Shown piece by piece: positions 646 through 31,164 of a stretch of DNA of 40,471 nucleotides (position 1 is the first letter of the stretch; every line of letters starts with the position of its first letter). The position numbers and the translations under genes are program-made. This DNA comes from an uncultured Myxococcales bacterium (lineage in GTDB: Bacteria; Myxococcota_A; UBA9160; SZUA-336), in assembly GCA_964566375.1 (NCBI GenBank), contig CAZMKX010000002.1, positions 1 to 40,471 on the forward strand, read 5' to 3'. Below the pieces are notes generated by a model. The model was not told the DNA's origin, searched no databases, and worked only from the letters and a program-made list of their open reading frames with translations.

Positions 646-2025
646 TTGACGCGATCGAGTACCGGTGGGCGAGGCGCGGCAGCGTGCCGCGCGATTCTCA
701 CGACCCTCGCGGTGCTGTGCGCCGGGATCGCTCTCTTCGTCGTGCTTCGCCGCGAGACCTTCCTCTCGGGGCCGAAGGAGACCGCGTTCTTCCTCGGCCT
801 TCCCGTCTTGCTGGGAGCGGGCCTCCTCGCCGCGACGCGGCTCGCGGTCGAGAAGCAGCTTCGCCTGATCGCCCTGCTCTCGTCGAGCGCGCTGTCGCTC
901 CTCTTCGTCGAGCTCGCCCTCTTCGGCGTGAGCGCGATGCGCGAGGCCGCCGCCGCGCGCGCGATGGCCGAGGTCGTCGCAGAGCAGAAGCGCGCGATGA
1001 AGGACTACGACACGCGCACCACACGGCAGCTCTTCATCGACCGCTGGAAGGAAGGCGACCGCATCTACCCGCGGATCTACCAGCTCTCGAGCCGCACGGT
1101 CGAGGTGAACGGCGTCCGCGTGTTCCCGACCTCGAGCCTCTCGGACCGGCAGATCGTGGAGTGCTTCGCGGACGGCCGATACAAGATCTACACCTCGGAT
1201 GAGTACGGCTTCGCGAACCCGCGCGGCAGCCACCGCGCCGACGCGAAGATCGTTCTCGTGGGGGACTCATTCACGGCTGGCGAGTGCGTCTCGGTCGAGG
1301 AGGACGTCGGCGCGAGACTCCGGCAGACGTTTCCCGCCACCGTCAACCTCGGCGTCGGCGGCGCGGGGCCCCTGTGGGAGCTCGCGAATCTCGTGGAGTA
1401 CGGACTGCCGCTGCACCCCGAGTTCGTCTTCTGGCTCTACTTCGAGGGCAACGATTTCGCAGACCTCATGCACGAGGCGCAGTTTCCGGAGCTCACGCAA
1501 TACCTCGACGGCAAGACCCAGGGACTCCGGGCCGCGAAGGCTGCCGTCGACGCGCAGGTCGAGGCTCTCCAGACGACCGAGATCGAGAGCCTCGAGACGA
1601 CGGCAGCGAAGCCTTCGCGCGCGACGTCCCCGGCGTCGCAGCTGCTGCGCTCGCTCAAGCTGCCGCGAATCCGGATGGCGCTCGGACTGCACGGCGATTC
1701 CTCGCGCGCCATCGATCTGCAGGTCGATCTCCTTCGCCGGGTGATCGAGCGCGCGAAGAGCCTCGTCGAGGCTCAGGGCGGCCGGTTCGTCTTCGTGTAC
1801 GTACCGTTCTACGGCCGTTTCGCGGGCGGGTCGGAGAATTTCGAGCGGGAGCGGGTGCTCGAGATGATCGCCCGAACCCGGGTGCGATCGATCGACCTGC
1901 TCCTCCTGATGGAGAAACACCCGGACGTCCTGTCGCTCTATCCGCACCGGCAGTCCGGCCACCTCGACGCCGACGGGTACGCGTTCATCGCCGATCAGCT
2001 CCGCGCCGAGATCGCGCGGGACTAG
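646..2025 (+). CDS. Membrane-anchored SGNH/GDSL-like protein, AlgJ/AlgX-like (SGNH-1)
   Basis: 459-aa ORF. TTG start is preceded by AGGAAGGA (631-638). Three N-terminal hydrophobic helices. Block I is IVLVGDSFTAGE, block III is YFEGNDFADL and block V is SGHLDADGY. Normal amino-acid composition. Confidence 0.75.
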   Translation: MTRSSTGGRGAAACRAILTTLAVLCAGIALFVVLRRETFLSGPKETAFFLGLPVLLGAGLLAATRLAVEKQLRLIALLSSSALSLLFVELALFGVSAMREAAAARAMAEVVAEQKRAMKDYDTRTTRQLFIDRWKEGDRIYPRIYQLSSRTVEVNGVRVFPTSSLSDRQIVECFADGRYKIYTSDEYGFANPRGSHRADAKIVLVGDSFTAGECVSVEEDVGARLRQTFPATVNLGVGGAGPLWELANLVEYGLPLHPEFVFWLYFEGNDFADLMHEAQFPELTQYLDGKTQGLRAAKAAVDAQVEALQTTEIESLETTAAKPSRATSPASQLLRSLKLPRIRMALGLHGDSSRAIDLQVDLLRRVIERAKSLVEAQGGRFVFVYVPFYGRFAGGSENFERERVLEMIARTRVRSIDLLLLMEKHPDVLSLYPHRQSGHLDADGYAFIADQLRAEIARD

Positions 2026-3452
2026 CGCAGTCGAGGCGCCGGAAAAGCGGCCGGATCGGCTGCCGGAGCGGGTCGAGCGCGCTTGCCGCGGGCGTCGTAG
2101 GAGCGCGCGATGCCATAGAGCGCGCCCGACAGGAACACGGGCAGATTGTTCCACCAGCCGTTCGCGAGCAGGTCGACGCAGCGCATGGAGACGATCGCCA
2201 TCAACGACGCCAGGAGGATCTTCTCCTGCGGAACGCGCACCCGATCCAGCGCGCGCCAGGCGGTGATCACGGGCAGGATCAGCATGATGAAGCGCAGCTC
2301 CAGACCGAGCGCACCGTGGGTTCCCAAGCGGATCGCCCAGTACCCGTCGATCCCGCCCTCGTAGCCGCCGGCTTGCCAGCCGCCCAGACCTTCCGCGCCG
2401 GGCACGCGCGAGATGTTCCCCCAGCCGAACCAGATGCGATCTTCCATCAGGTCGAGCACGAAGTTCTCGTCGGCGAAGCGCCCCCAGAGCGAGTCCTGCC
2501 GCTCCTTGCCGAGCACGGCGGCCCACTCGACGAGCTGATCGTCGGGGAACACGTCGGTCGCGCGCAGGGCCGGGTAACCGCACACGATCACCGCGAGGAT
2601 CACCGAGATCCGCGCGACGTTCTGCGCGCGAAGCCACGTGATGGCCGCGCTCAGCGACGTCCCGTACAGGACGCCCGCCACGTTCCGCGAGAGCAGCAGG
2701 CCGACCCACGACAGAATCCAGACCAGTCGCGGTCGCAAGCCGTACACCGGGAGCTTCACGCGCGCGAGGCCCGCTGCAGCGAGCGCGCAGCTCGCCATCC
2801 AGGTTGCGAGCGACAGGCCGTGGTCCATGAACACCGTCGGCTGGACGACGCCCCAGCGGAAGGAGGCCTGCTGCGCGAGGTTGTACAGGAGCTTGCTCAG
2901 CTGGAAGACGTGAAACGGGACGGCCATCACGACCTCGACGAGGATCAGCACGCCGTAGCCGAAGCCGGCCGCGCCGAGGCAGATCATCAGCGTGCGCAGC
3001 GCAGCGCGGCCGGTGAACATCGCGCGGCCGAGGAAGAAGGGGATCGCGAACGTGAGGAGCTCGTCCGCACCGCCCGAGACGATGTCGTATGCCGAGAGGC
3101 CGGGCTCGAGACGCCCCTCGTCCCACATGGGGCTCGAGTTCGTCAGGATGGTCGCGACGTTCGCGATCATGAACACGCCCACGAGAGCTTCGGGGCCGAA
3201 CCCGGGTCGCGCCGCGGAGATGCTGCGCGACTGGAAGATGAGCGCGCCGATCAGGGCGCTCGCGTACGTGATCCGCTCCTTGTCGAACGGCGGAACGACC
3301 GGGAAGTCGAACGCCAGCCACTCGGGAAGCAGAACCGAGCCCGCGAGGATGACCACCGCGGTCGCGGACTCGCGCGGCAGTCGCGAGAACACGTAGATCG
3401 CGACCGGCAGGAAGCCGGCGAGAGCGAGGTAGGCGAGCAGGCTCGGCTGCAC
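2022..3452 (-). CDS. O-antigen ligase / Wzy-like polymerase family membrane protein
   Basis: Polytopic membrane protein with at least 10 hydrophobic segments. A large loop carries FGWGN..GIDGYWAIRLGTHGALGLE, resembling the Wzy_C/O-antigen ligase motif. The maximal ORF reaches 3632, but its first 60 aa are R/A-rich. I place the start at the GTG at 3452, giving VQPSLLAYLALAGF directly into TM1. Confidence 0.6.
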   Translation of the reverse strand: MQPSLLAYLALAGFLPVAIYVFSRLPRESATAVVILAGSVLLPEWLAFDFPVVPPFDKERITYASALIGALIFQSRSISAARPGFGPEALVGVFMIANVATILTNSSPMWDEGRLEPGLSAYDIVSGGADELLTFAIPFFLGRAMFTGRAALRTLMICLGAAGFGYGVLILVEVVMAVPFHVFQLSKLLYNLAQQASFRWGVVQPTVFMDHGLSLATWMASCALAAAGLARVKLPVYGLRPRLVWILSWVGLLLSRNVAGVLYGTSLSAAITWLRAQNVARISVILAVIVCGYPALRATDVFPDDQLVEWAAVLGKERQDSLWGRFADENFVLDLMEDRIWFGWGNISRVPGAEGLGGWQAGGYEGGIDGYWAIRLGTHGALGLELRFIMLILPVITAWRALDRVRVPQEKILLASLMAIVSMRCVDLLANGWWNNLPVFLSGALYGIARSYDARGKRARPAPAADPAAFPAPRLR

Positions 3453-3759
3453 TACGCGACGCCCTGCGCACCCACACGCCTCGAGGCGCGGCGCGGAGTG
3501 CTGGAATCGGTTCGCATTTCGACGGGTGCTCTCCAGTCGTGCGGCGAAGGAATGTAGGTGATCTTCCGCTGCGAGACCGGCTCGACGCGCGATGCCTTCT
3601 CGGCGTCCCGGGGCGGCGGCTTCTCCGCTCAAGTCACGCGCGACGCGCGCCGTCGAAGCCTCTGGTGCCGTTGATCGAGAAGAGTGGCTACCATGCGGCC
3701 CCGCGGGTGAGCGGCACCGCAGTCCGTGTCGTCACCCCGCGTCGAGACGCCAGGAGCGT

Positions 3760-5286
3760 ATGTCAGCGCCCAACGATGACGGCCTAGAGCCTTCCGCGGC
3801 CGCCGTTGCCGACGCCGGCCGGAGCGTGCGCGTGCGCGCCAGTCGCGGAACGATGGTCAGTCTCGTCGGCCAAGGGATCGCCCAGGTGCTCCGCCTCGGG
3901 GGCAATCTCGTCCTCGCTCGGCTCCTCTTTCCCGAAGCCTTCGGCGTCATGGCGATCGTGTACCTGGTCGTCTTCGCGCTGGACCAGATCTCGAACATCG
4001 GAATCGGCGCCGCGATCATGCGCTTCGATCGGGGCGAGGAGCCGGTCTTCCTCGACACCGCCTGGACGATGCAGGCGATCCGCGGGGTCGGTCTCTGGCT
4101 GGTCTCCGTCGCGGCAACGCCGCTGGTGGCGAGCTTCTACCACATGCCCGAGCTGACGACGATCCTGCCGATCGCCGCCTTCGGTGTCGTGATCACCGGC
4201 CTGACCTCCACGAAGCTGATGGTATTGACGCGCCGTCTGGATCTGACGCGCGCGGTCGCGATCGAGATCTCCGGTCAGCTCGCTGCGCTGGTCGTGATGA
4301 TGACGATCGCCTGGATGCACCCATCGGTCTGGGCGCTCGTCTGGGGCGGCCTGGTGAATGCGTTCGTCATCGCGCTCTTGAGTCACCTCGCGATTCCGGG
4401 CCCGGGCAACCGCTTCGCGTGGAACCGGGACGACGCGCGCGCGATCTACTCGATCGGCAAGTGGGTCCTGGCGTCGAGCGGCGTGTCTTTCCTGCTCGCG
4501 CAGATCGACGTTGCGCTGCTGGGGCGGCTGGTGCCGGCAGGGCTCCTGGGCGTGTACACGATGGGCTCCGTCATTCCCAGCCTGCTTCGCGACCTGTCCT
4601 TCCGGCTCTCGTCGTCCGTCCTCGCACCCGTCGTCGCCGAGGCGAACCGCGAGAGCCCCGGCGTCCTTCGCGAGCGCTACGCGGCGGCGCGCCGGCTGAC
4701 GTTGCCGACGGCGATGGTCGCTGCGCTCGGCGCGGCGGTGGTGGCACCCGCCTTCTTCGCGGTCCTGTACGACTCACGCTACGCCGACGCCGGCTGGATC
4801 GCGCAGCTCGCGCTGTTCCGGTACTGGTTCGCCTACCTGCAGGTCTCCGGCTGCCTGACCCTGCTCTCGATGGGGATCGGAAGCACGTGGGCGGTGTCGA
4901 ACGTCGTGGGCCTGATCGGGACCACCGCGGGCGGACTGATCGGCTTCCACGTCGGATCGCTGCCGGGCTTGCTCATCGGCGTCGCGATCGGCACCGCCCT
5001 GGGGGCCCTGGTTCCGATCGTGCACCTGCAGCGCCTCGGCGTCGCCTCTCCCCTTCCCGAGCTTCGCTACACGCTCGCGGGGCTGGCTCTGGCCGCCGTG
5101 CTCTACGGCGCCGTTCACTACTCCGATGGCGTCGTCGCGATCGCGAACCCGGCGCTCCGGACGCTCGTCGTCGGCGGGATCGCGGTTGCGCCGATCGCGG
5201 TGTGGGCGGCACTGCGGGTCCTGCCCGAGATCTCGCTGGGAACCCGCGGTCGGGTCGAGCCGGAGCCGACCGTCAGACCCGGATGA
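3760..5286 (+). CDS. Wzx-like oligosaccharide flippase (MOP superfamily polysaccharide biosynthesis protein)
   Basis: About 14 hydrophobic helices with typical Wzx layout (LVGQGIAQVLRLGGNLVLARLL, GKWVLASSGVSFLLAQIDVALLGRL). ATG at 3760 is preceded by AGGAG (3752-3756). The upstream 56 codons of the maximal ORF (from 3592) are R/P-rich and probably non-coding. Confidence 0.8.
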   Translation: MSAPNDDGLEPSAAAVADAGRSVRVRASRGTMVSLVGQGIAQVLRLGGNLVLARLLFPEAFGVMAIVYLVVFALDQISNIGIGAAIMRFDRGEEPVFLDTAWTMQAIRGVGLWLVSVAATPLVASFYHMPELTTILPIAAFGVVITGLTSTKLMVLTRRLDLTRAVAIEISGQLAALVVMMTIAWMHPSVWALVWGGLVNAFVIALLSHLAIPGPGNRFAWNRDDARAIYSIGKWVLASSGVSFLLAQIDVALLGRLVPAGLLGVYTMGSVIPSLLRDLSFRLSSSVLAPVVAEANRESPGVLRERYAAARRLTLPTAMVAALGAAVVAPAFFAVLYDSRYADAGWIAQLALFRYWFAYLQVSGCLTLLSMGIGSTWAVSNVVGLIGTTAGGLIGFHVGSLPGLLIGVAIGTALGALVPIVHLQRLGVASPLPELRYTLAGLALAAVLYGAVHYSDGVVAIANPALRTLVVGGIAVAPIAVWAALRVLPEISLGTRGRVEPEPTVRPG

Positions 5287-6028
5287 GCCCGCCCGACACG
5301 CGTCGGACCAGGCGCTTCAGGCGGCTGCGGATTCCGCCCTCCTCCACGAACACTTGACTGTGTAGGAAGATCTCGCCGTGCGGTCCACCGGCGGGCAGGC
5401 TCGCGACGGTCCGCGCGTGCGCGTACGCCTCCGCCGGATCGTCGCCGGTATCGCTCATGCGGGTGCGGTAGACACCGGCGAGGAGCTCGTTCACGAGAAC
5501 GTCGGGATGGCGCGCGCGGTCGACCTCGGACGCGAGCGCTTTCGTGAAGACGGTGACCGCCGCCTTGGATGCGGCGTACGCGGAGCTAGCGGGGATCGGG
5601 CCCTTCCAGGCGAACGACCCCATGTTGATGATGCGGCCGTGACCCCGCTCCAGCATGCCCGGAAGTGCCTTCCGGCAGCACAGAGCGAGCCCGATGACGT
5701 TGGTCTCGAACGCGTGCGTCCAGTCCGCGTGCGTCGAATCCAGGAAGAGCACCTTCGGATACTGCGCAGCGTTGTTCACCAGGACGTCGACCTTGCCGTG
5801 GAGCCGCATCGCCTCGGCGAAGAGCCGGTCGACATCGGCCTCGCTCACCACGTCGCCGACGACGAAGTGCATCCGCCCGCCGCAGAGCGCGGCCGTCTGC
5901 TCGAGATCGGCACGCGTCCGACCGATTCCGACGACGTCCGCTCCGTCGGCGCAGAAGCCGACGGCGAGACCCCGCCCCACGCCGGATCCCGCTCCGGTGA
6001 TCACGACCGTCTTGCCCGAGAAGATCAT
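5273..6028 (-). CDS. Short-chain dehydrogenase/reductase (classical SDR)
   Basis: TGAGSGVGRG (TGxxxGxG), NNAA and a catalytic YAASK (YxxxK). 251 aa. The start overlaps the stop of the upstream GMC gene (6025-6028). Confidence 0.9.
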   Translation of the reverse strand: MIFSGKTVVITGAGSGVGRGLAVGFCADGADVVGIGRTRADLEQTAALCGGRMHFVVGDVVSEADVDRLFAEAMRLHGKVDVLVNNAAQYPKVLFLDSTHADWTHAFETNVIGLALCCRKALPGMLERGHGRIINMGSFAWKGPIPASSAYAASKAAVTVFTKALASEVDRARHPDVLVNELLAGVYRTRMSDTGDDPAEAYAHARTVASLPAGGPHGEIFLHSQVFVEEGGIRSRLKRLVRRVSGGLIRV

Positions 6029-7707
6029 CGGCTGCTCCCCTTCGACAGGCGTTCGTCGATCACCTCGGCAACGCGAAGCGCGTTCGCCGCGATCGTCAGG
6101 CTGGGATTCGTACCCCCGCTCGACGGAAAGAAAGACGCGTCGACGACGTACAGGTTGTCCACCTCGTGCGCGCGGTTGTTCCGATCGAGAACGCTCGCGG
6201 CCGGATCATCCCCGAAGCGGATCGTCCCGCACGGATGCCCGAAGTTGAGATTCATCGGCCGGGTGAGCACGAGCACCCTCGTCCGGCCGAGGTGCCGGAC
6301 GAGCCCGCGCCGGAGCAGCGCGTTCCGCTCGCCGAGCTCCTCGCTGTACTCGTACTCGAAGCGCATCCCGTTCTTCGCGTCCGGATCGGGAACGACGCGG
6401 TTGTCGAGGTACGGAAGATCCTCGACGATCGAGCCGAACGCGACGGCATTGCGGAAGTAGTAGGCGGCGATGCGCGAGATGATCCTCAGCAGGAGCGGAT
6501 GCGCGAGCTGCTTGAGCCAGCGCGGGCCCTTGCTCAGGCTCGTCTGCAGATGAGCCATGACCGACCCGGTGTCGATGTGGACGCCCGTCGACTGCACGTT
6601 CCCGAGCTTGCGGCCCTCGTAGACGTAGAGGTCGTTGATCGACAGCGACTTGCTGAAGCTCTCGGAAGCCTGCCCCCGCCTCGCCCTCACCGCGATCATG
6701 TCGCCGGAGTGCAGCATCAGGTTCCGGCCGACGAGTCCGGAGCCGTTCGCGAGCCCTGTCTCCCCGCCGCCGCCCTTCGAGTTCAGCAGCAGGATCGGCG
6801 ACATCAGTGCGCCCGCAGCCAGCACCACGATCTTCGCGGCGATCGAACGCTCCCGTCCCTGCCAGGTGCAGCGGATCCTTCGGACCCCTGCGCGGTCGGC
6901 CTCGAGCTCGGTGACCTCGCACTGACTCATCAGCTTCGCGCCGTATTTCTCGATGGCGGGAACGACGCAGACACTGCCCGAGTCACTCTTGCAGTCGCGA
7001 AGACAGACCCTGCCCGGACAGCCGTCACAGCCGGGAACGAGCTGGCAGCCGATGTGCAGGCGATACGGATTCAATCCCTTCCGCACGAAGAGATCGTGGA
7101 CCTCCTGGTCCTGCTCGTTCATCGGCGGCGGCTCGGACAGCCCGCCGCTCCCAGGATGGAGCGGATCGGGCGTTCCGCGCACGCGGAAGAGCTGCTCCGC
7201 GCGGCGGTAGTACGGCTCCAGCTCTTCGTAGTCGACCGGCCACGCCTCCGGCAACGTCGAGCCCGACACCTCCGGGAAGTTCGACTTCGGCCGGAAGTCG
7301 GCGGGAAAGAAGCGCTCCAGCGTCGCGCCGAAGATGATCGTCGAGCCGCCCGTACCGCAACCCAGCGGCGCGAAGAACTCGACCTTGCCGAGGCTCAACG
7401 CGCCGCGGATCCGATCCGACCAGCGGCCGCCACTGACGCGGTCCCCGCGTCGCATGACCCCCTCGACCGGCAGCGGCCAGTGTCCCATTCGCAAGCGCTT
7501 CTTCGAATCCTCGCTCTGGTCGCCGAGCTCACCGCGCTCCGTGTCGGTCTCGCGCTGGACGAACCGGCCCTTCTCCAGAAACAGCACGCGATGGCCACGG
7601 CGGGCGAGATCGAAGCCGATCGTTGCGCCGCCCATCCCGGCGCCGATGACGGCGACGTCCCACTCGGTGGATTCGGGATCGACGGGTTCGTGAAGAGCAC
7701 GGTCCAC
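6025..7707 (-). CDS. GMC-family FAD-dependent oxidoreductase
   Basis: N-terminal DVAVIGAGMGGATIGFDLARRGHRVLFLEKG (FAD Rossmann fold). C-terminal GTIRFGDD..NLYVVDASFFPSSGGTNPSLTIAANALR (GMC C-terminal signature). A Cys-rich insert reads CQLVPGCDGCPGRVCLRDC. GTG start lies 3 nt after the stop of SGNH-2. Confidence 0.9.
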   Translation of the reverse strand: MDRALHEPVDPESTEWDVAVIGAGMGGATIGFDLARRGHRVLFLEKGRFVQRETDTERGELGDQSEDSKKRLRMGHWPLPVEGVMRRGDRVSGGRWSDRIRGALSLGKVEFFAPLGCGTGGSTIIFGATLERFFPADFRPKSNFPEVSGSTLPEAWPVDYEELEPYYRRAEQLFRVRGTPDPLHPGSGGLSEPPPMNEQDQEVHDLFVRKGLNPYRLHIGCQLVPGCDGCPGRVCLRDCKSDSGSVCVVPAIEKYGAKLMSQCEVTELEADRAGVRRIRCTWQGRERSIAAKIVVLAAGALMSPILLLNSKGGGGETGLANGSGLVGRNLMLHSGDMIAVRARRGQASESFSKSLSINDLYVYEGRKLGNVQSTGVHIDTGSVMAHLQTSLSKGPRWLKQLAHPLLLRIISRIAAYYFRNAVAFGSIVEDLPYLDNRVVPDPDAKNGMRFEYEYSEELGERNALLRRGLVRHLGRTRVLVLTRPMNLNFGHPCGTIRFGDDPAASVLDRNNRAHEVDNLYVVDASFFPSSGGTNPSLTIAANALRVAEVIDERLSKGSSR

Positions 7708-7710
7708 GGC

Positions 7711-9144
7711 TCAGTCGTCCTTCCCGACGCTGAGCGACCCGCCGTGCGGTCGGCGTTCGAGCAGGCCGCTCGCGACGAGCGAGTCCGCGACGACGGCTGC
7801 GGCGACGTCCTGGCCCGCATCACTCCAGTGATCGTCGAAGCCGCGGAAATAGATCGCCTCGCTGCCACGGCTCTGGAAGGTCGAGAAGAGATCGATGGTG
7901 GGAATGCCGCGGCGGCGCCCGATCTCCTCGATGATCGAGACCAGGCCCCGCGGCTGGTAGTCCGGGTATTTCGCGCGGTCGACCTCGCCGGTCGCGTGTC
8001 CACCGACGTCGACGGGGTGCGGAATCGGGATCACGACCAGCGGCGCGGATACCGTCGCGCAGACCTCGGCCATCCTTCCGATGATGCGATCCATGAGCTC
8101 GATCTTGTACCGCGCCGCGTCGCTCTTCGGTGTCAGACTCACGTCTGCGTCGTAGCTGTCCCAGGCCAGGTCCCGAAGCGTTCCGTCGCCCCGAACGATG
8201 TACTCCTCGTACTCGGCGACGTGGCGCTCGCGGAAATACTCCATCCGCTCGAGCGGGCTCATCGATTCCACACCGTTCGACGGCCCCTGGCGGAGGCCCA
8301 GACGAACCGCCAGTGCGTACACGCCGTCCCGGATCAGCCGCTTCAGGATCGCCTCTTCGCGGCCCAGCTTCATCGCTCGCTCGAGCGACGGCTCGATCAC
8401 GAACGCGTTCTCCTCGAGCTCGCCGTTCCCGTTCAGGCGGTAGAGCTTGTTCCGCAGGAGGTCTCCGAAGTCGTTGCCCGTGAAGATTCCGACGAGCACC
8501 AGGTCCGGCCTCAGGCCGGCCAGCTCGCGCTCCATCTTCCGCAGCTCCTGGTCCGGGCCGTAGCCGGCGACGCCCGCGTTCACGACCTCGATGTTCCGGT
8601 GCAGCCGCGAGGACAGCCGATCGGCCAGTCGTACGGCGAACGTGTTCGCGAGGCTCGAGTAGTAGCCGTGGACGAACGAATCGCCGTAGATCGCGATCCG
8701 GAAGTCGGGCCGAGCCTGCAGCTCGTCGCCGCGAAACCCCTGGCTGTTGATCGAGTAGGTGATCCGCTCGCCGCCGTTGATCTCGTCGCGCCGGCTGGTC
8801 TGGATCGCGCCGGGAACCGGCCGATAGAGCAGGCGTGCGTCGAGCTCGTTCTCGGCCTTGAAGCTCGCGGAGAACAGGAACTGGAGCGCGGCCTCCGTCG
8901 CCGACAACATGATCAGCGTCGAGAGGACGAGTGCGAGCACGCGCGCGTTCCACGCCAGGGGCAGCAGGCAGCTCGCGGCGACGGCGACCCCCACGAGCAG
9001 GAGGCCCGCCTGCGTGGAGCCGAATCCAGGCCCGCCGCCAATGAGCTTGTCGTCGGCGAACGCCCACGCGGCGAGGCCGGCGCCGACGAGCAGCGAGAGC
9101 ACGCGCACCACGAGCCGGAACCTTCTCGCGTCCCGCTCGTTCAC
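7711..9144 (-). CDS. Membrane-anchored SGNH/GDSL-like protein, AlgJ/AlgX-like (SGNH-2)
   Basis: 477 aa. GTG start is preceded by GGAGGGG. Three N-terminal helices. Contains INSQGFRGDE, IAIYGDSFVHGY (block I), FTGNDFGDL (block III) and FDDHWSDAGQ (DxHW-type block V). Confidence 0.75.
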   Translation of the reverse strand: MNERDARRFRLVVRVLSLLVGAGLAAWAFADDKLIGGGPGFGSTQAGLLLVGVAVAASCLLPLAWNARVLALVLSTLIMLSATEAALQFLFSASFKAENELDARLLYRPVPGAIQTSRRDEINGGERITYSINSQGFRGDELQARPDFRIAIYGDSFVHGYYSSLANTFAVRLADRLSSRLHRNIEVVNAGVAGYGPDQELRKMERELAGLRPDLVLVGIFTGNDFGDLLRNKLYRLNGNGELEENAFVIEPSLERAMKLGREEAILKRLIRDGVYALAVRLGLRQGPSNGVESMSPLERMEYFRERHVAEYEEYIVRGDGTLRDLAWDSYDADVSLTPKSDAARYKIELMDRIIGRMAEVCATVSAPLVVIPIPHPVDVGGHATGEVDRAKYPDYQPRGLVSIIEEIGRRRGIPTIDLFSTFQSRGSEAIYFRGFDDHWSDAGQDVAAAVVADSLVASGLLERRPHGGSLSVGKDD

Positions 9145-9166: not shown

Positions 9167-10438
9167 TCATCGCGTCGCGGTCCGCGCGAGGATGCGGCGG
9201 TAGAGCGCGAGCGTCTTCTCCGCGACCGCGGCGGGGCTCAACTGCGCGGCGCTCGTCTCGGCCGCCGCGCGGCCCAGGCGCGCCGCTCGGTCGGGATCGC
9301 GGAGCAGAGCGAGGATCGCCCGTGCGAGATCGTCCGGATCCGCGGGGCGGGCGAGCAGGCCGCTGACCCCGTCCGTCACCATCTCCACCAATCCGCCGGT
9401 CGCCGTCGCGACGACGGGGCAGCCGCAGGTCATGGCCTCGCCGAGCGTGTACGGGAAGTTCTCCCAGCGCGAGCAGACGACCGTCACGGCCGCCCGCATG
9501 CGGAGCTGCCGGATGACCGGCCCGGGCTGCGCGCCGAGATACTGAACCGCGTCGCGATCGGCTTGCTTCGGCAGCCGGTCGTCGATGAACTCCCGGGCGT
9601 GCCAGCGGCGGCCGTGCGCATCGGTGACGCCAGGATCGGCACCCGCGAAGATCAGCCGAGCGGACGGCTCGACCGCGCGAATCCTCGCGAACGCCTCGAT
9701 CGCGACGTCACCCGCCTTGTGGCTGTCGAAGCGGCCGACGAACAGGACCGTGCCCGGCTCGGATTTCCGCGCGTCCCAGCGCTCCGCCTCGGGAACGGCA
9801 GGAAGCGGATTCGGAATGACCTCGGCCTCGGCGAGGGGCAGACCGTAGAAGGCGCGCGTGCGCTCGAGCACGTCGCGCGAAGGCGCGCTGATTCCGGCCA
9901 CGCGCGCGATCGCCGCACCCTCCCGGCGCACGCGCCGCTTGAACGCCCGCGTGGTCGTGTCCTCCGTCATCGCCCCGTTCAAGAACCACGGACCGTGCAG
10001 GCGCGCGATCACCGGAACGGAGCACCTGGCGGCCACCCATCCGCACCAGCCGAACGACTCCTCCATCTCGACGACGTCGATCCCGTGCTCGCGAACGAGC
10101 CGCTCGATCTCGCCCGCGATCGCCATCTCGTTGGCGTGGTTTGCCGAGGCTCCGCGGCTGATCGCCTCCTGAAGTCGCTGTAGCGCGAGCAGCGGAACCC
10201 GGATCGGCCGCGGGACCGACACGTGCGCATCCGATCCGTCGGAGCCGTCGATGCCGGTCACGACGAAGACCTCGGCTCCCTTCGCACGCAGCGCCGGAAC
10301 GACGTGGGCCGCATAGGTCACGATGCCGTTCGCGATCTTCCCGCCGGGCCAGGCCGGTGTCAGGATCACGACCTTGAGCGGTCGGCCAGCGTCGGCCACA
10401 CCCGTCCCGATCGATCGTTGGGGAACGGGACTGCTCAT
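9167..10438 (-). CDS. Glycosyltransferase family 4 (GT-B)
   Basis: LKVVILTPAWPGGKIANGIVTY.., GRFDSHKAGD.. and the C-terminal EX7E-type region RWENFPYTLGEAMTCGCPVVATATGGLVEMV. Start set at the ATG at 10438. The maximal ORF start at 10519 would overlap the upstream gene. Confidence 0.85.
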   Translation of the reverse strand: MSSPVPQRSIGTGVADAGRPLKVVILTPAWPGGKIANGIVTYAAHVVPALRAKGAEVFVVTGIDGSDGSDAHVSVPRPIRVPLLALQRLQEAISRGASANHANEMAIAGEIERLVREHGIDVVEMEESFGWCGWVAARCSVPVIARLHGPWFLNGAMTEDTTTRAFKRRVRREGAAIARVAGISAPSRDVLERTRAFYGLPLAEAEVIPNPLPAVPEAERWDARKSEPGTVLFVGRFDSHKAGDVAIEAFARIRAVEPSARLIFAGADPGVTDAHGRRWHAREFIDDRLPKQADRDAVQYLGAQPGPVIRQLRMRAAVTVVCSRWENFPYTLGEAMTCGCPVVATATGGLVEMVTDGVSGLLARPADPDDLARAILALLRDPDRAARLGRAAAETSAAQLSPAAVAEKTLALYRRILARTATR

Positions 10439-10496
10439 GTCGGATGGGTCGGCGTCGCGGCACGCGTGCTTGACCCCCGCGTGGTCGGGATCGCAC

Positions 10497-11591
10497 TCAT
10501 TTCGCGTGCTCGCCGACATGCCGACACGTCGGTGGCCAGGTCTCGAGGATTCGCGCCGCTACGATGGCGTTTCCCTCCGGCGTCAGGTGGCCGTCGAAGG
10601 GCAGGAAGAGCGCTTCGTCCGTTCGGTCGGCCAGCGGCTGCGTGACGTCGATGAAGTCCGCTCCGATTCCACGCAGGATCTCCTCCGCTTCGCGCACAGG
10701 CCGAAGAGGATCGCGGATCTCGTTCACCATCGCACCGGCACGCGCCGCGTCGACCGCGGCCTGCGTCGGCAAGATCACGAAGCGGACCTCCGCGCCGTGC
10801 GCGCGCCCGACGTCCAGGATCCGCGCCATCTCTCGCGCGTAGGTCTGGCGTGCGCCGGCAAGAAATCCGCTGCTCCACGCGTTCGCGTCCGCGAGCTCCT
10901 CGAACATCTTCTCGAAGGGTGCATCCGGCCCGGGCGCAAAGCGGTGCAAGGCCGACGACGCCAGGCGATACAGGTGAAGGTGGGTCTTCAGCCAGCTCTT
11001 GAGGTCTCCACCGTGCCCCAGAATGCCCTCGTGTACCGCCACGTCCTTGTCCCAGACGGCGTCGTGGAAGTCGTTGCCGACGTAGGTCACGACGTAGACG
11101 GACTCGGGCGTACGCCCCTGGCGAAATGCCAGCTCGAGGAGCTCGCGGTACTGGACCGGGCCGTAGCCGGGCGCGGCGGTATTCACCTCGAGCACCTCGG
11201 GCGAGCTCGCCTGCACCCGTCCGACGATCGAGTCCGCATAGTCCACGCCGTGACCGAACGCGAACGAATCGCCAAGCCAGAGGGCGGAGCAGCGGGCGCC
11301 CACCGGGCGCGCGTCTCCGGTCCGGAACCCGTCCCCATCGGTGATGACGGTCCAGCGCGTCTCACCGGTGTCGACGAGCACGTTCTCGTCCGGCATCAGC
11401 GCGTGGAAGGGAAGCTCCGGGTGGCGACGGTAGATCGCCAGCCACGACGGCGACTGCGGTGCGACCACGCGCAGCGCCAGCTCCGCCAGCCCGAGCGACA
11501 GCGACGTGGACACGAGCAGGAGCGCGGCGCTCAGCGCGATGCGAGCCGCCCTTCGCTCCGTCGGCGTGCCGTCCCCGTCGGCGCTCTTCAC
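10497..11591 (-). CDS. Membrane-anchored SGNH/GDSL-like protein, AlgJ/AlgX-like (SGNH-3)
   Basis: Start set at the GTG at 11591, which overlaps the SGNH-4 stop (GTGA). Single TM (IALSAALLLVSTSLSLGLAELALRVV). Contains DGDGFRTG, LWLGDSFAFGHG, YVGNDFHDA and FDGHLTPEGN. The upstream 122 codons of the maximal ORF are R-rich and overlap SGNH-4. Confidence 0.7.
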   Translation of the reverse strand: MKSADGDGTPTERRAARIALSAALLLVSTSLSLGLAELALRVVAPQSPSWLAIYRRHPELPFHALMPDENVLVDTGETRWTVITDGDGFRTGDARPVGARCSALWLGDSFAFGHGVDYADSIVGRVQASSPEVLEVNTAAPGYGPVQYRELLELAFRQGRTPESVYVVTYVGNDFHDAVWDKDVAVHEGILGHGGDLKSWLKTHLHLYRLASSALHRFAPGPDAPFEKMFEELADANAWSSGFLAGARQTYAREMARILDVGRAHGAEVRFVILPTQAAVDAARAGAMVNEIRDPLRPVREAEEILRGIGADFIDVTQPLADRTDEALFLPFDGHLTPEGNAIVAARILETWPPTCRHVGEHAK

Positions 11592-15947: not shown

Positions 15948-15950
15948 ATC

Positions 15951-18349: not shown

Positions 18350-18422
18350 GCCCCGGCGCGGCGCGTAGAATGGGCCGCGCTCGCGAATCCTCGCGCCTTC
18401 GATCGCACGGGAGTGGATACGG

Positions 18423-21187: not shown

Positions 21188-21517
21188 GTGTCTCCTGTCC
21201 GTACACGACGCGTCGCCCGGTCGCAACGTCGGCGAGGGAGCCGGTACGGTGACCCGGCTCGGCTGAGCGGCTCGCGGTCTATCGGTCGGGCTTCCGGGGC
21301 GGTTGATCGCGGGCCGGCGGGAGATCTGCTGCAGCCCGGCCGGGTTCTCGCGGTGGCGCGGGCGGGTCGGTCCGGAGCTGCACCCTGCTGATCAAAACCT
21401 CTGCTTGAGATCGTCGACGCAAGAGCCGATCCTGTGCACGTTAGCCCCCTTTGCCCACCGGCCGTCGGAGAGAGTCTCCCAAGCGCGCCCGGCGGAGCTC
21501 GAACGGAGCCGCTCGAG

Positions 21518-22649: not shown

Positions 22650-23303
22650 TTGCTCCCGATGATTCTGGGCCGCGAGGCCGGCTCGCCGCTTCGAATCCTC
22701 TGTCTCGGCGCGCACAGCGACGACATCGAGCTCGGTTGCGGTGGCGCGATGCTCACGCTGCTGGCGGCGCATCCCGGAAGCCGGGTCCTGTGGGTGGTCT
22801 TCAGCGGCTCGGACGTGCGTGCCGCGGAGGCGCGGGCCAGCGCAGCCGACTTCCTGGCGGGCGCGAAGGAGCGCGACGTCCGAACGCTGGCATTCCGTGA
22901 GTCGTACTTCCCGAGCCAGGTGCCCGAGATCAAGCCCGTCTTCGAGACGCTCTCGGCCTTCGAGCCAGACCTGGTCTTCAGCCATCGCGGCGCGGACCTT
23001 CACCAGGACCATCGTACGATCGCGGAGCTGACCTGGAACACCTTCCGCGACCACGTGATCCTGGAATACGAGATCCCGAAGTACGACGGCGACCTCCGGA
23101 GTCCCCAGGCCTTCGTTCCGCTCGAGGCGGCCGTCGCACGCGAGAAGTGCCGGCTGCTCCGCACGCACTTCGCCTCGCAGCACTTCCGGCACTGGTTCGA
23201 CGATGAGCTGTTTCTCGGGCTGATGAAGATGCGCGGGATGGAGTGCCGTTCACGAACCGGATACGCCGAGGGCTTCGACGTGCGCAAGCTGGTGCTCGCC
23301 TAG
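22650..23303 (+). CDS. PIG-L/LmbE-family N-acetylglucosaminyl deacetylase
   Basis: LCLGAHSDDIELGCGGAML (AHxDD..G.GG) and HRGADLHQDHR (HxDH), the zinc-dependent PIG-L signature. TTG start at 22650; alternative ATG at 22659. Confidence 0.85.
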   Translation: MLPMILGREAGSPLRILCLGAHSDDIELGCGGAMLTLLAAHPGSRVLWVVFSGSDVRAAEARASAADFLAGAKERDVRTLAFRESYFPSQVPEIKPVFETLSAFEPDLVFSHRGADLHQDHRTIAELTWNTFRDHVILEYEIPKYDGDLRSPQAFVPLEAAVAREKCRLLRTHFASQHFRHWFDDELFLGLMKMRGMECRSRTGYAEGFDVRKLVLA

Positions 23304-29140: not shown

Positions 29141-30052
29141 ATGGGCGTTTCGATCGTCATTCCCTGCTACAACGGCGGTCGCTACGTCCGCGAGGCGGTC
29201 GAGTGCGCGCTCCGCCAGACGATCCCGCCCGAGCAGGTGATCGTCGTCGACGACGGGTCGAAGGACGATTCGGTTCGCGTGGCGTCCTCGGTCGCGGGTG
29301 TGCGGGTGATCTCGCAGGAGAATCGGGGCGCCAGCCTGGCCCGGAACCGCGGGCTCGCCGAGGCGACGGGCGAGTACGTGATCTTCACCGACCACGACGA
29401 TCGACTTCTGCCCGACGCGATCGAGATCGGCCTTCGCGCCTTCGCGCAGCACCCCGAGAGCGGCTTCGTTTACGGCTTCCACCGCTCGATCGACATGCTC
29501 GGCCGTCCCGCGCCCGACATCGTCCGTCGCCACGTGGCGGACGCGAGCTACCGCCGCACGCTCGAGGGCGACACCCTGGTTCCGCCCGGCTGCGCGATGT
29601 TCCGGCGCGAGGCGCTCGACGCGGTCGGCGGCTTCCACGACGGGACCTTCCCTACCGAGGACTACGATCTCTACCTGCGCGTCAGCCGCTCGGCGCCGAT
29701 CTTCTGCCACAACCAGGTGGTGATCGAGTATCGCTGGCACGGCGAGAACGCGAGCGGTGTGAGTCCGAGCCGTGGACTCCGGTCCGCGATCCGGACTCTG
29801 GAACGGCAGCGCGACTTCGTGCGGGGAAACGCCGAGCTCGAGCGCGCGCTCGAGACGGGCAAGCGCCACTGGGGTCACGTGTTCGGCCCGGGCGTGGCGT
29901 TCGAGGCGGTCCAGCAGCTTCGCGACGGCGAGCTCGGCACTTCCCTGGCGACGCTCGCGCTCGCGCTGCGCTGGCATCCGCGCGGCCTCCTGGACGTCGC
30001 GATTCATTTCGCGCGCCGCGCCGGGGGAGCCCGGCCCGCGAGCGATCCCTAG
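29141..30052 (+). CDS. Glycosyltransferase family 2
   Basis: VSIVIPCYNGGRYVREAVECALRQT, VVDDGSKDDS, RGASLARNRG and FTDHDD (DxD). Confidence 0.9.
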   Translation: MGVSIVIPCYNGGRYVREAVECALRQTIPPEQVIVVDDGSKDDSVRVASSVAGVRVISQENRGASLARNRGLAEATGEYVIFTDHDDRLLPDAIEIGLRAFAQHPESGFVYGFHRSIDMLGRPAPDIVRRHVADASYRRTLEGDTLVPPGCAMFRREALDAVGGFHDGTFPTEDYDLYLRVSRSAPIFCHNQVVIEYRWHGENASGVSPSRGLRSAIRTLERQRDFVRGNAELERALETGKRHWGHVFGPGVAFEAVQQLRDGELGTSLATLALALRWHPRGLLDVAIHFARRAGGARPASDP

Positions 30053-31164
30053 AAGCGCGCACCGCAGGCATCGGCGGGGATCATTGCGCGCTCGACGAGC
30101 CGCGCCGCGATCGCTTGCGCGACGAAGCGGTTTCCCGCGGAGGAATAGTGCCCGCCCGGGCCGCGCTCGAGCGTCGCGGGCTGGAAGAGTGCGCGCCGCT
30201 CCGGGTCGGGCACGCGGCTCATCTCGTCGGAGAGATCCGCGAACGCCAGACCGTCGGCGCTGACGCGCGCGAGCGCCGCCGCGCCGAAATCCGGGAGCGG
30301 CGCGAGCGAATCGGGCCGCGCGGCCTCGAGGTGCGGAAGGTGCACGAGCAGCAGCTCCGTCCCGCGCTTCGCGGTGACCGCGTGCAGCGCGCGGAAGACC
30401 GCCTCGTCGACGCGCTCCGCGCCCGCGTCGTCGAGGCGTTGGCCGGGCACGGGCGCGGGCTTCGCGAAGTGCGCCCGGATGGCGCGGGGCAGCTCGACGA
30501 CCCGGAGTGTCTCGAGCAGGGACAGGTTCTGGGTGACTGCCGGAAGCAGATACGGCGCGCGCGGAACCGGAACGTTGGACGGGACCAGCACGCCGTCGAC
30601 GATCTCGAGGACGGGCTTCCCGTAGCCGGCCATGCGGTCCATCTGCACGCGCTTCAGGTCGTCCTCGATGAATGCCAGGACCAGCACCTGGTGCTCGAAG
30701 GCGGTGCCGTCGCGCAGGTACCAGAGATAGCTCTGGTCGATGCCGTAGCCCGACTGGCCCATGTTGGGAACTTCGAGCCCCGGACAGAGCCGCTCGAGCC
30801 AGGCCGGCCAGGAATCCGCGTCCCCGACGTCGTAGCCGAGGGTGAACGAGTCGCCGAGCGCGACGACGCGGGTCTTGCCCGGGGGCACCGAGTCCGCGAG
30901 CTCCGACGCGTTCCGGAAGCCGCGCGCGTTGGTCGTGACGTCGAGTCCGGGACCGAAGACGTCCCTTGCGACCGTGCTCTTTGCGTTCGACCAACCGAGC
31001 TCCGGGTCGTAGACGGTGTGCGCGCGCTCCGGAAGCGGCCTCCAGTAGTGCATGCGCGCCCACCAGACGAAGTACGCCAGGCTCGCCGCGCCTTCGACCA
31101 GCGCGAAGACGAGCCCCACCGCGAGCAGGCCCGAGAGCACGCGGCGGACGCGGGGCAGCTTCAT
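30049..31164 (-). CDS. Membrane-anchored SGNH-like protein, AlgJ/AlgX-like (SGNH-6)
   Basis: ATG at 31164. Single TM (LSGLLAVGLVFALVEGAASLAYFVWW). Contains TNARGFRNA and VVALGDSFTLGYD (block I). Block III is degenerate (FIEDDLKRV). Block V is PGGHYSSAGN. Confidence 0.7.
   Translation of the reverse strand: MKLPRVRRVLSGLLAVGLVFALVEGAASLAYFVWWARMHYWRPLPERAHTVYDPELGWSNAKSTVARDVFGPGLDVTTNARGFRNASELADSVPPGKTRVVALGDSFTLGYDVGDADSWPAWLERLCPGLEVPNMGQSGYGIDQSYLWYLRDGTAFEHQVLVLAFIEDDLKRVQMDRMAGYGKPVLEIVDGVLVPSNVPVPRAPYLLPAVTQNLSLLETLRVVELPRAIRAHFAKPAPVPGQRLDDAGAERVDEAVFRALHAVTAKRGTELLLVHLPHLEAARPDSLAPLPDFGAAALARVSADGLAFADLSDEMSRVPDPERRALFQPATLERGPGGHYSSAGNRFVAQAIAARLVERAMIPADACGARF

Follow-up and report, generated by a model that had tools for sequence, protein, structure and literature searches.

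We find that six membrane-anchored SGNH proteins, here called S1 to S6, are encoded in one polysaccharide locus of an uncultured Myxococcales bacterium; the window analyzed is the whole of contig CAZMKX010000002.1 (40,471 nt). The reading that we prefer, at a roughly even probability, is that they are six non-redundant, step-specific, putative ester-tailoring enzymes of a single glycan locus, working without a dedicated MBOAT or AT3 protein. The genes, and the motifs of their products, are:

646..2025, forward strand: S1, SGNH protein, 459 aa, three TM helices (SDEYGFAN, GDSF, N-x-G, GNDF, SGHL)
7711..9144, reverse strand: S2, SGNH protein, 477 aa, three TM helices (INSQGFRG, GDSF, NAG, GNDF, DDHW)
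10497..11591, reverse strand: S3, SGNH protein, 364 aa, one TM helix (DGDGFRTG, GDSF, GNDF, DGHL)
11588..12604, reverse strand: S4, SGNH protein, 338 aa, one TM helix (TNSLGFRG, GDSF, ANDF, DGHW)
18423..19676, forward strand: S5, SGNH protein, 417 aa, one TM helix (INSHGFRG, GSSS, RND, WVHL)
30049..31164, reverse strand: S6, SGNH protein, 371 aa, one TM helix (TNARGFRN, GDSF, NMG, EDD, GGHY)

All six open reading frames that the preliminary description had placed between 646 and 31164 were found there, with third-position GC of the coding type. Their GC at the three codon positions (0.66 to 0.75, 0.43 to 0.50, and 0.86 to 0.91) is as in genuine genes of this 70% GC window, so S1 to S6 are real genes. 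They also belong to one family, as had been proposed, with Pfam, profile, and hhalign matches in agreement. All match Lipase_GDSL_2 (E 1e-5 to 1e-12), S2 (7e-12), S4 (3.3e-11), and S5 (1.2e-12) above the gathering score and S1 (1e-5), S3 (6e-6), and S6 (6e-6) below it. A profile made from 40 S2 orthologues recovers S4 (E 3e-20), S5 (7e-14), S3 (5e-11), S1 (6e-11), and S6 (2e-7) and finds no seventh family ORF in the window; hhalign aligns S6 orthologues with the S2 profile over 283 columns (probability 98.9%, E 1.4e-17).

The membrane anchors were described correctly from the outset: hydropathy and AlphaFold models give three N-terminal helices in S1 and S2, each of S3 to S6 has a single one, and a conserved Glu ends the anchor in every protein, being retained in 60/65 aligned S2 orthologues and 17/18 other family members. 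An N-x-x-G-F-R motif, whose invariant part in the six-way alignment is G-F, can be assigned in all six, as can SGNH blocks I, II, III, and V in the canonical order S-G-N-H. Besides the TM Glu and G-F, the invariant positions are the block I Gly and Ser, the block II Asn, the block III Asp, and the block V His. Ser of block I and His of block V are found in 95 to 98% of 117 aligned family members, across which block II N-x-G is retained as well, and GDSF, N-x-G, GND, and DDHW are invariant among the 40 S2 orthologues. The individual motifs are less uniform than first described: block I is not GDSF throughout, S5 having G-S-S, not G-D-S, and block III deviates from GNDF in S4 (ANDF), S5 (RND), and S6 (EDD, without the Asn). 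The block V His is present in all six, but the Asp two residues ahead of it only in S2, S3, and S4; activity has been described in SGNH enzymes with Ser-His dyads and with atypical oxyanion holes (PMC9487903). S2, S3, and S6 have an excess of Lys and Arg ahead of the anchor, consistent with an N-in, C-out topology, the charge count being ambiguous for S1, S4, and S5, and the catalytic domains of all six probably face the periplasm.

The gene content of the window, from a Pfam scan of its gene calls and the names of homologues, is that of a Wzx/Wzy glycan pathway; the locus is a Wzx/Wzy-dependent polysaccharide cluster with further genes for a polyprenyl-phospho-pentofuranose/GT-C side-branch system. 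The genes beside S1 to S6 are:

2022..3632, reverse strand: Wzy_C/O-antigen-ligase-like polytopic membrane protein with seven hydrophobic segments (homologue PF04932)
3592..5286, forward strand: Wzx-type flippase (Polysacc_synt_3, E 3.7e-45)
5273..6028, reverse strand: SDR oxidoreductase without signal peptide (adh_short, E 2e-45)
6025..7707, reverse strand: GMC-family FAD oxidoreductase without signal peptide (GMC_oxred_N and GMC_oxred_C)
9167..10519, reverse strand: GT4 glycosyltransferase between S3 and S2 (Glycos_transf_1, E 7e-33)
19673..21226, reverse strand: GT-C fold glycosyltransferase of PMT_2 type (PMT_2, E 7.7e-11)
29141..30052, forward strand: GT2 glycosyltransferase (Glycos_transf_2, E 6.6e-35)

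By adjacency alone, S1 pairs with the Wzy-like gene, S2 with GMC, SDR, and Wzx, S3 and S4 with GT4, S5 with GT-C, and S6 with GT2. The Wzy-like gene is convergent with S1, overlapping it by 4 bp, and probably starts later than annotated, giving a product of about 470 aa; this protein has no Pfam match itself, PF04932 occurs in one of its homologues, and a distant homologue bears the name "O-antigen ligase domain." The two genes are also adjacent in loci L007 and L088, and in several other assemblies their orthologues share a longest-contig figure, which suggests a shared contig. S4, S3 (overlapping by 4 bp), GT4, S2, GMC, and SDR follow one another in a run that ends with SDR, GMC lying directly downstream of S2. 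The order S4-S3-GT4-S2 recurs in locus L001, and the position of GT4 between S3 and S2 is kept in L001 and L003. Orthologues of GMC, to which FAD-glucose dehydrogenase 6a2u (2e-31) and fructose dehydrogenase 7w2j come closest among solved structures, lie near S2 in 41/83 loci, and those of SDR lie within 10 kb of it in 42/83. GT-C and S5 are convergent with an overlap of 4 bp, as are GT2 and S6, and a convergent GT2/S6-type pair is also found in L001 and L002. Across phyla, the family is linked consistently to glycosyltransferases, Wzx, and Wzy-like genes in glycan loci.

The six copies are anciently diverged subfamilies rather than recent duplicates, as judged from sequence scores, because each has orthologues elsewhere scoring 300 to 778 bits, against 37 to 58 bits between the window paralogues. 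Orthologues of S1 have 459 to 461 aa and up to 91% identity; those of S3 occur in loci L001, L008, L011, L027, and L065, those of S4 in L001 (72% identity) and L038 (45%), and those of S6, with identical motif quirks, in L001 (72%) and L008 (68%). The set is inherited, since five of the six recur in a relative (S2 ~64% identical), in the same, rearranged, 38 kb Myxococcota locus (GCA_040902485.1; L088/L001). Missing from that syntenic locus is the lower-GC S5 block (0.66 to 0.68 across 14 to 20 kb); the best orthologues of S5 are betaproteobacterial (L033 and L028, 50 to 52% identity). An IS-like ORF adjoins S5 in this block. Six is the maximum copy number among the 88 sources sampled, 63 of which have a single copy, so the locus is unusual as had been claimed, but "expansion" is a misleading word for six old subfamilies with orthologues of their own.

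Structure prediction, which had been proposed as a check of the SGNH fold, gives confident models of S1 and S2 (pLDDT 92.3 and 90.8), and in these both are canonical SGNH folds. The solved structures most like them are those of classical esterases and hydrolases (CgnD, 1yzf, AlAXEase, Axe2, and TesA): S1 matches TesA/TAP 1j00 best (7.6e-5), followed by other SGNH esterases, and S2 matches CgnD, a slow protease (PMC10070186), ahead of canonical SGNH esterases. PatB (7TJB) is a significant match of S2 at rank 44, and neither AlgJ nor AlgX is among the top 50 structural neighbors listed by Foldseek. With canonical GDSL/SGNH esterases (TesA/TAP 1IVN, 1YZF, Axe2, and AlAXEase 7DDY) the window proteins share the order and identity of blocks I to III and the fold (Foldseek probability 1.00, target-normalized TM-score 0.6 to 0.8). 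They differ in adding the TM anchor of one or three helices with its Glu, the upstream N-x-x-G-F-R in a beta-rich segment, and a mostly helical insert of ~120 to 140 residues between blocks III and V; in a block V that is D-x-H or Asp-less; and in being encoded within a glycan-assembly locus. The only curated models spanning the whole architecture are two NCBIfam hypothetical equivalogs from Leptospira, LA_2486, which S3 matches end to end (residues 26 to 350 on model positions 4 to 323 of 326), and LA_2490, whose N-terminal motif region is matched by S4 (E 2.6e-10). The window proteins score 28 to 40 bits (S3 28), far under the cut-offs of 300 to 325, and both families are uncharacterized.

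Kinship with AlgJ and AlgX, advanced in the preliminary description, is borne out only in part. Block V of S2 to S4 is D-x-H-W-like, as in AlgJ/AlgX (PF16822; 4O8V, 4KNC) and WssI, and not D-x-x-H; the S2-family profile places the DDHW segment on D-T-H-W of AlgJ (4o8v, E 7e-5) and also matches AlgX (4knc, E 0.011). Profile similarity covers ~110 residues running into block V: S2 (E 1.3e-8) and S3 (7.9e-8) exceed the Pfam ALGX gathering score, only across model positions 26 to 133 of 268, and S6 matches weakly, under threshold (0.015). AlgJ is likewise membrane-anchored, and these systems too involve an exported polysaccharide. However, in AlgJ/AlgX-type proteins the blocks are circularly permuted to H-S-G-N, block I reads GTSYS, and block III has a Tyr (PMC9487903), whereas S1 to S6 are unpermuted with GDS and Asn; membership of the AlgX family is therefore rejected. 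The match of the S2 profile to PatB1 of Bacillus cereus (5V8E), a DHHW-family protein with DHHW where S2 has DDHW, is weak (E 0.1), and none of the six matches Pfam DHHW at E ≤ 1; PatB1 is moreover permuted, has Arg in block II, and has the MBOAT PatA1 as its partner (PMC9487903).

It is nonetheless conceivable, although we think it unlikely, that S1 to S6 function in classical two-component O-acetylation, as do AlgJ/AlgX, PatB, WssI, or DltD, and accept an acetyl or other acyl group from the acyl-Tyr of an MBOAT or AT3 protein whose gene lies in another part of the genome; the Glu-bearing TM helix would dock on that protein. Besides the D-x-H block V, the AlgX/AlgJ/PatB1 profile matches, and anchoring as in AlgJ, PatB, and DltD, the MBOAT-SGNH and AT3-SGNH mechanism is itself known (PMC12148441), and a few S2-type loci have, within 10 kb, an MBOAT (L033, L052, and L053) or an AT3-SGNH fusion (L006, L014, and L044). 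PatB, the OatA C-terminal domain, the OafB SGNH domain, and DltD resemble the window proteins as canonical-order, extracytoplasmic SGNH domains acting on envelope glycopolymers, but they are fused to or beside a membrane acyl donor (PMC9487903, PMC12148441) and the window proteins are neither. The earlier statement that no MBOAT or AT3 is in view stands: a Pfam scan of gene calls covering essentially all of the window, hence of the contig, finds none, and all ORFs with 280 aa or more and five or more hydrophobic segments match window query proteins, including Wzx, Wzy-like, GT-C, and UbiA-type proteins. Known MBOAT-SGNH pairs are adjacent genes (algI-algJ, patA-patB, dltB-dltD, and wssH-wssI), while S1 to S6 have no adjacent AlgI/WssH-like gene, the 38 kb syntenic locus has neither MBOAT nor AT3, and of 83 loci around S2 orthologues at most 4 have an MBOAT and ~10 an AT3, as a rule not adjacent but 7 to 8 kb off or, for AT3, already fused to its own SGNH domain. 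The unpermuted architecture argues against this alternative as well.

A canonical motif set and esterase-like closest structures, together with dispensing with a trans-membrane donor, would suit pure periplasmic O-acyl or carbamoyl hydrolases that trim substituents added in the cytoplasm or borne by precursors and so tune the final decoration pattern; 27/83 S2-type loci have a NodU/CmcH-type carbamoyltransferase as a possible source of a cytoplasmic ester-like group. We consider this improbable: the window has, by Pfam, no acetyl-, acyl-, or carbamoyl-transferase to make the substrate, five to six conserved non-redundant esterases per glycan are hard to rationalize, and characterized polysaccharide esterases are generally soluble or lipoproteins, not proteins with one or three TM helices. 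Membrane-surface (phospho)lipases or lipid acyltransferases remodeling envelope lipids or the lipid anchor, rather than the sugar chain, could be imagined from TesA/lysophospholipase L1 among the nearest structures, homologues named "lysophospholipase L1-like esterase" in some sources, and tethering by a helix with an interfacial Glu, but the linkage to glycan-assembly genes across phyla, and a window in which Pfam finds no lipid-metabolism genes, make this very unlikely. Least probable, to the point of being hardly credible, are non-catalytic scaffolds or chaperones of the assembly machinery, or amidases or proteases like CgnD: CgnD does head the matches of S2, and blocks I or III are degenerate in S5 and S6, but the Ser and His are nearly universal, and orthologues within each subfamily share its motif variant, a sign that the active site is under selection.

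In the preferred reading of ester tailoring, each Ser-His(-Asp) enzyme would sit on the outward side of the membrane beside one assembly step, S1 with the Wzy-like polymerase/ligase, S2 with Wzx and the cytoplasmic GMC-flavoenzyme/SDR pair, S3 and S4 with GT4, S5 with GT-C, and S6 with GT2. Through a covalent acyl-Ser intermediate, it would attach, shift, or take off an ester group on the nascent polymer or the undecaprenyl-linked repeat unit, independently of any dedicated MBOAT or AT3 protein; here we infer the glycan as substrate, the ester chemistry, and the reaction direction. Acyl transfer by an SGNH/GDSL enzyme that has no MBOAT or AT3 partner has precedents in Aeromonas GCAT and Legionella PlaC, GDSL acyltransferases with phospholipid donors, although these are secreted and sterol-directed and are not known to have a specific sequence relationship to the window proteins. 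The canonical GDS/Gly/Asn/His set and the hydrolases among the nearest structures (TesA, acetyl-xylan esterases, and CgnD) count against transfer, and the likeness of block V to that of the dedicated transferases AlgJ/AlgX/PatB1 supports the ester-tailoring reading; we slightly prefer transfer to plain hydrolysis, since the locus has no further O-acyltransferase gene from whose product an esterase could get its substrate. S1 to S6 belong to a large, widespread, and uncharacterized family of inner-membrane-anchored proteins, on which our literature search found no paper, and position-specific O-acyl decoration of the glycan is a plausible, putative role for them.

The window holds a single polysaccharide-assembly locus, flanked on its right side by purF and purL. 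Its GC content of 66-72% makes long spurious ORFs common, and genes were called by third-position GC first and then by Pfam and NCBIfam matches, giving the following map, in which S1 to S6 are the six SGNH proteins.

Genes of the locus (coordinates, strand, product)
1-609, minus: GT2, partial
646-2025, plus: S1
2022-3632, minus: Wzy_C/O-antigen-ligase-like membrane protein
3592-5286, plus: Wzx flippase
5273-6028, minus: short-chain oxidoreductase (SDR)
6025-7707, minus: GMC oxidoreductase
7711-9144, minus: S2
9167-10519, minus: GT4
10497-11591, minus: S3
11588-12604, minus: S4
12893-15028, plus: secreted PKD-domain protein
14970-15947, plus: methyltransferase
16018-17190, minus: IS1-like ORF, Arg-rich, zinc-finger (weak IS1-transposase match, E 8e-4)
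17126-18349, minus: FkbM methyltransferase
18423-19676, plus: S5
19673-21226, minus: GT-C
21434-22609, plus: GT1-like
22650-23303, plus: PIG-L deacetylase
23304-24557, plus: C-methyltransferase
24566-25678, plus: epimerase/dehydratase
25675-27012, plus: UDP-glucose/GDP-mannose dehydrogenase
27009-28322, plus: DUF4910 protein (DUF4910/DUF2172/HTH_47, aminopeptidase-like)
28330-29130, plus: nucleotidyltransferase
29141-30052, plus: GT2
30049-31164, minus: S6
31315-32205, plus: GT2
32446-35383, plus: DprE1-like (NCBIfam E 4e-101), DprE2-like and UbiA-type polyprenyl-phosphate phosphoribosyltransferase-like genes
35392-36606, minus: GT1

The antisense ORF at 13001-14521 (-) is no gene, the plus strand there encoding the PKD-domain protein, and the ORF at 16018-17190 was rejected as an acyltransferase, being rich in Arg and free of TM segments, with a weak match to an IS1 transposase. 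The DprE1-like, DprE2-like and UbiA-type (decaprenyl-phosphate phosphoribosyltransferase-like) genes co-occur with the GT-C gene, a set resembling the extracytoplasmic pentofuranose "three-component" pathway of Kelly et al. 2024 (PMC11127046), compared with which the window version has an arabinofuranose-type epimerase pair.

The six SGNH ORFs belong to one family, as the preliminary description had proposed: searched with a profile of 40 S2 orthologues, the window yields the other five (E 2e-7 to 3e-20) and no seventh member, and a profile of S6 orthologues can be aligned with that of S2 along the entire catalytic domain (probability 98.9%, E 1.4e-17). Pairwise BLAST identities are 22-36%, mostly in the ~100 residues around blocks I-III. 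All six match Lipase_GDSL_2 (PF13472), with S2 (46.6 bits), S4 (44.5) and S5 (49.1) above the gathering threshold of 32.9 bits and S1 (26.5), S3 (27.3) and S6 (27.3) below it. The canonical SGNH/GDSL blocks I (GDS), II (Gly), III (Asn) and V (His) are present in order; the Ser, the N-x-G and the His are invariant, and the block III Asn is found in five of the six (S1-S5), with Asp in S6. Invariant columns comprise a Glu close to where the anchor helix ends, the G-F of the N-x-x-G-F-R motif, the G and S of block I, the N of block II, the D of block III and the H of block V. The motifs first listed for the family need amending in places: GDSF is found in five proteins but S5 has GSS(S) rather than GDS, block III reads ANDF in S4, RND in S5 and EDD in S6, and the block V Asp two residues before the His is confined to S2-S4 (S1 SGHL, S2 DDHW, S3 DGHL, S4 DGHW, S5 WVHL, S6 GGHY).

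The expected SGNH alpha/beta/alpha fold is recovered in confident AlphaFold models, built on orthologue alignments, of S2, a strong Pfam match (pLDDT 90.8), and S1, the weakest (pLDDT 92.3); for S3-S6 the fold is supported by profiles only. Both models begin with three helices and a small segment, rich in beta structure, that bears the G-F-R motif, followed by an SGNH core with a mostly helical insert of ~120-140 residues between blocks III and V, and Foldseek matches them to SGNH esterases at probability 1.00. Membrane anchors are present in all six proteins. In S2, the TM1-TM2 loop (residues 28-52, "DDxxxGGGPGFGxxQ") and several TM residues are nearly invariant across 40 orthologues of 40-76% identity, and the 3-TM domain of S1 is homologous to that of S2; given this conservation, the membrane domain of S2 and S1 probably has a role beyond anchoring.

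The AlgX and DHHW families share a circularly permuted H-S-G-N order and a D-x-H block V, have GTSYS (or KDS) as block I and have lost the block III Asn (PMC9487903). An AlgJ/AlgX-type assignment, suggested earlier, holds as far as the D-x-H block V, present in S2-S4, whereas the other three of these defining features are absent. AlgX proteins (PF16822) are permuted, but all six window proteins have GDS before blocks II and III and block V at the C-terminal end; AlgX block I is GTSYS, against GDSF in five window proteins and GSSS in S5; Tyr replaces the block III Asn that S1-S5 keep; and the AlgX D-x-H (not D-x-x-H) is seen in S2, S3 and S4 and absent from S1, S5 and S6. The ALGX Pfam model (cut-off 26.5 bits) scores 35.2 bits with S2, 32.7 with S3 and 15.4 with S6, with no match for S1, S4 or S5, and its match is partial, covering positions 26-133 of 268 only. 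In profile alignment, S2 "..lkglDDHWndaGqdlaaelvae.." falls on AlgJ "..LRTDTHWTPMGAEVAAQALAEA.." (4o8v, E 7e-5), placing DDHW on the AlgJ DTHW, and the N-terminal half of the S2 profile aligns to ordinary GDSL esterases (1yzf, E 3e-8).

The nearest structures to the S1 and S2 models in Foldseek are classical SGNH hydrolases (CgnD, 1yzf, AlAXEase, Axe2, TesA); AlgJ and AlgX are absent among the best 50 matches listed, and PatB ranks 44 among the matches listed. The top match, CgnD, is a slow leader peptidase of an unrelated RiPP pathway (PMC10070186), and we reject it as a functional relative, taking it as a fold neighbor only. No DHHW match is found by Pfam at E ≤ 1 for any of the six, and DHHW (PatB1-like) proteins have a permuted fold with DxRY in block II, whereas the window proteins have the canonical order with N-x-G. 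The only curated models covering the whole architecture are two uncharacterized Leptospira NCBIfam families of SGNH/GDSL-type esterases, LA_2486 and LA_2490 (cut-offs 300/325 bits), from which the window proteins fall far short (best scores 28.1 bits for S3 against LA_2486 and 40.2 bits for S4 against LA_2490). Because only the block V feature is shared, by S2-S4, and the Foldseek neighbors are classical hydrolases, we conclude that the six proteins are a hybrid, canonical-order SGNH proteins with an AlgX-like block V, and lie outside the AlgX family.

External orthologues of each paralogue score 300-778 bits, versus 37-58 bits for the best paralogue in the window, and subfamily quirks are common to orthologues: the S6-type "GGHYS", without the block III Asn, recurs in L001 and L008 (L numbers denote sampled loci in other genomes), and the S5-type "G[AS]SST...RND...WVHL" in two betaproteobacterial MAGs. 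The Myxococcota MAG GCA_040902485.1, whose S2 is ~64% identical to that of the window, carries on L088 and L001 together a rearranged version of the window locus with S1, S2, S3 (frameshifted), S4, S6 and the same neighbors; its S3 orthologue (L001 7641-8715) is split into ORFs of 283 and 71 aa, the second matching the family's C-terminal part, through either a frameshift (pseudogene) or an assembly error. The block of methyltransferase, IS1-like ORF, FkbM, S5 and GT-C genes is missing from this syntenic locus. Since this block (14970-21226) is also lower in GC (0.66-0.68, versus 0.69-0.72 elsewhere), S5, whose best orthologues are betaproteobacterial, was on sequence grounds probably acquired together with it as a horizontally gained add-on module.

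Family members were counted within ± 10 kb of S2 orthologues in 88 sources, a few of them duplicates: there is a single member in 63, two in 18 and three in 4, while the L001 locus has four and the window six; the window is therefore the extreme of a real multicopy tendency. The unusual expansion first described is thus right in its count, but it consists of six old subfamilies, not a recent expansion. The family is also large and widespread, since a profile of the six paralogues matches at least 1,283 clusters at 50% identity with E ≤ 1e-30, the best-scoring near full length, and 50,404 more at E ≤ 1e-10. Cultured carriers include Marimonas arenosa KCTC 52189 and Ruegeria arenilitoris.

We find the strongest linkage between S2, the GMC flavoenzyme and the SDR. 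Out of 83 nonredundant S2 loci (window included), 41 have a GMC orthologue, 42 an SDR orthologue and, at slightly different cut-offs, 39 both, from Myxococcota, Alpha-, Beta- and Gammaproteobacteria, Zixibacteria and a Spirochaetaceae MAG. This module (5273-9144 minus in the window; also L001, L003, L005, L008, L011, L012, L015 and others) often occurs with Wzx, and its SGNH protein is of the 3-TM type. Neither the GMC protein nor the SDR has a signal peptide, and the nearest solved relatives of the former are FAD-glucose and fructose dehydrogenases (6a2u, 7w2j); one guess is an oxidize-then-reduce sugar epimerization coupled to a periplasmic step. In the window, S4-S3-GT4-S2-GMC-SDR is a minus-strand run of tightly spaced or overlapping genes with Wzx divergent, an order kept in L001, with GT4-S2-GMC-SDR in L003. 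S1 and the Wzy-like gene are convergent with a 4-bp overlap and adjacent also in L007 and L088, and equal longest-contig values suggest that their orthologues share a contig in several other assemblies. S5/GT-C and S6/GT2 are likewise convergent pairs with 4-bp overlaps, the latter found also in L001 and L002, and the block UDP-sugar dehydrogenase-DUF4910-nucleotidyltransferase-GT2-S6 is kept, DUF4910 protein included, in the window and L001/L088.

Other genes recur near S2 orthologues. A NodU/CmcH-type carbamoyltransferase is present in 27/83 S2-type loci (L006, L012, L014, L019, L023-L026 and others), 16 of which also have an SxtJ-like gene, and an AMP-binding/luciferase-like/PP-binding protein in 11 of the 83; the window has none of these, and their presence hints that some lineages may use the family on carbamoyl groups or on acyl groups activated by a carrier protein. 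Upstream of S4/GT4, the relatives encode a conserved protein of 562 aa (L001 4939-6627, L003 6999-8687), with ~8 TM segments and without a Pfam match; the window lacks it, and there S4 is followed directly by the PKD gene. Three seemingly conserved clusters of "unknown" ORFs (665, 174 and 114 aa) have low-complexity, non-protein-like translations and were judged spurious out-of-frame ORFs, at least one overlapping the carbamoyltransferase gene on the opposite strand.

In agreement with the initial reading, a Pfam scan of the window genes found no MBOAT or AT3 protein, the membrane acyl donors that SGNH O-acyltransferases normally need; no hexapeptide or GNAT acyltransferase was found by Pfam in any window gene either. 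Every window ORF that reaches 280 aa and has five or more hydrophobic segments matches a window protein used as a query, Wzx and the Wzy-like, GT-C and UbiA-type proteins among them. We rejected the polytopic protein at 2022-3632 as a hidden MBOAT: no homologue has an MBOAT domain, one has Wzy_C, and another, distant, goes under the name "O-antigen ligase domain." The syntenic locus of GCA_040902485.1 has no MBOAT/AT3. In the 83 loci there were 69 TM-rich ORFs with no other assignment, of which 4 are MBOAT and 7 AT3 proteins, and three further loci have AT3-SGNH fusions, so that overall MBOAT occurs in at most 4 and AT3 in ~10; the MBOATs that could be placed lie 7-8 kb from the S2 orthologue. 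In MBOAT-SGNH and AT3-SGNH systems the donor is encoded by an adjacent gene or fused, a pattern from which the S1-S6 family departs. The known systems relay the acyl group via an acyl-Tyr on the membrane partner (PMC12148441). A distal MBOAT/AT3 partner elsewhere in the source genome would conform to this relay and to the few loci with such a protein nearby; set beside the window and its syntenic counterpart, it seems unlikely.

The reading we favor, to which we give about even credence, is step-specific ester tailoring without dependence on a dedicated MBOAT/AT3. The SGNH enzymes would act on the undecaprenyl-linked unit or nascent polymer, through ester chemistry via an acyl-Ser intermediate, with a putative N-in/C-out topology; the charge bias for this topology is clear in S2, S3 and S6 and ambiguous in S1, S4 and S5. 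We lean slightly toward acyl transfer over hydrolysis, since an esterase would need an ester to act on and no other gene of the locus could provide one. The canonical hydrolase-like motifs and predicted structural neighbors would argue the other way, and the SGNH review PMC9487903 gives no sequence-only rule separating transferases from esterases; that the proteins are pure esterases is nonetheless doubtful. Lipid-directed enzymes would suit one of the database names that members carry ("SGNH/GDSL hydrolase family protein," "lysophospholipase L1-like esterase" and "hypothetical protein" are the only ones), and the S1-S6 genes are linked to glycan-assembly genes; we regard this as very improbable. 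Noncatalytic or amidase roles are barely plausible beside the Ser-His(-Asp) SGNH active site that the six proteins and 117 relatives have conserved.

Ester tailoring without a dedicated donor can be extended to a broader reading, decidedly unlikely to hold in its entirety: the family would be a previously unrecognized MBOAT/AT3-independent route for extracytoplasmic glycan modification, in which membrane-tethered SGNH transacylases might use a membrane-resident donor directly (a phospholipid or lipid-linked intermediate), the site for the donor or partner might be built from the conserved interfacial Glu together with the conserved 3-TM domain found in S1 and S2, as many as six position-specific enzymes might serve one pathway, and S2-GMC flavoenzyme-SDR(-Wzx) might be a new kind of repeat-unit modification system.

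We found no paper describing this SGNH architecture or the S2-GMC-SDR module. Extracytoplasmic acylation of bacterial glycans is at present explained by MBOAT-SGNH and AT3-SGNH pairs; here, a large family with a hybrid active site and a conserved membrane segment occurs in glycan loci of many phyla without MBOAT/AT3 and can reach five or six copies in one pathway. If its members are transferases, a new donor mechanism is needed, and if they are esterases, an unrecognized layer of periplasmic editing is implied; either way, the family, and above all the S2-GMC-SDR module, is a clearly delimited target that is amenable to experiment.
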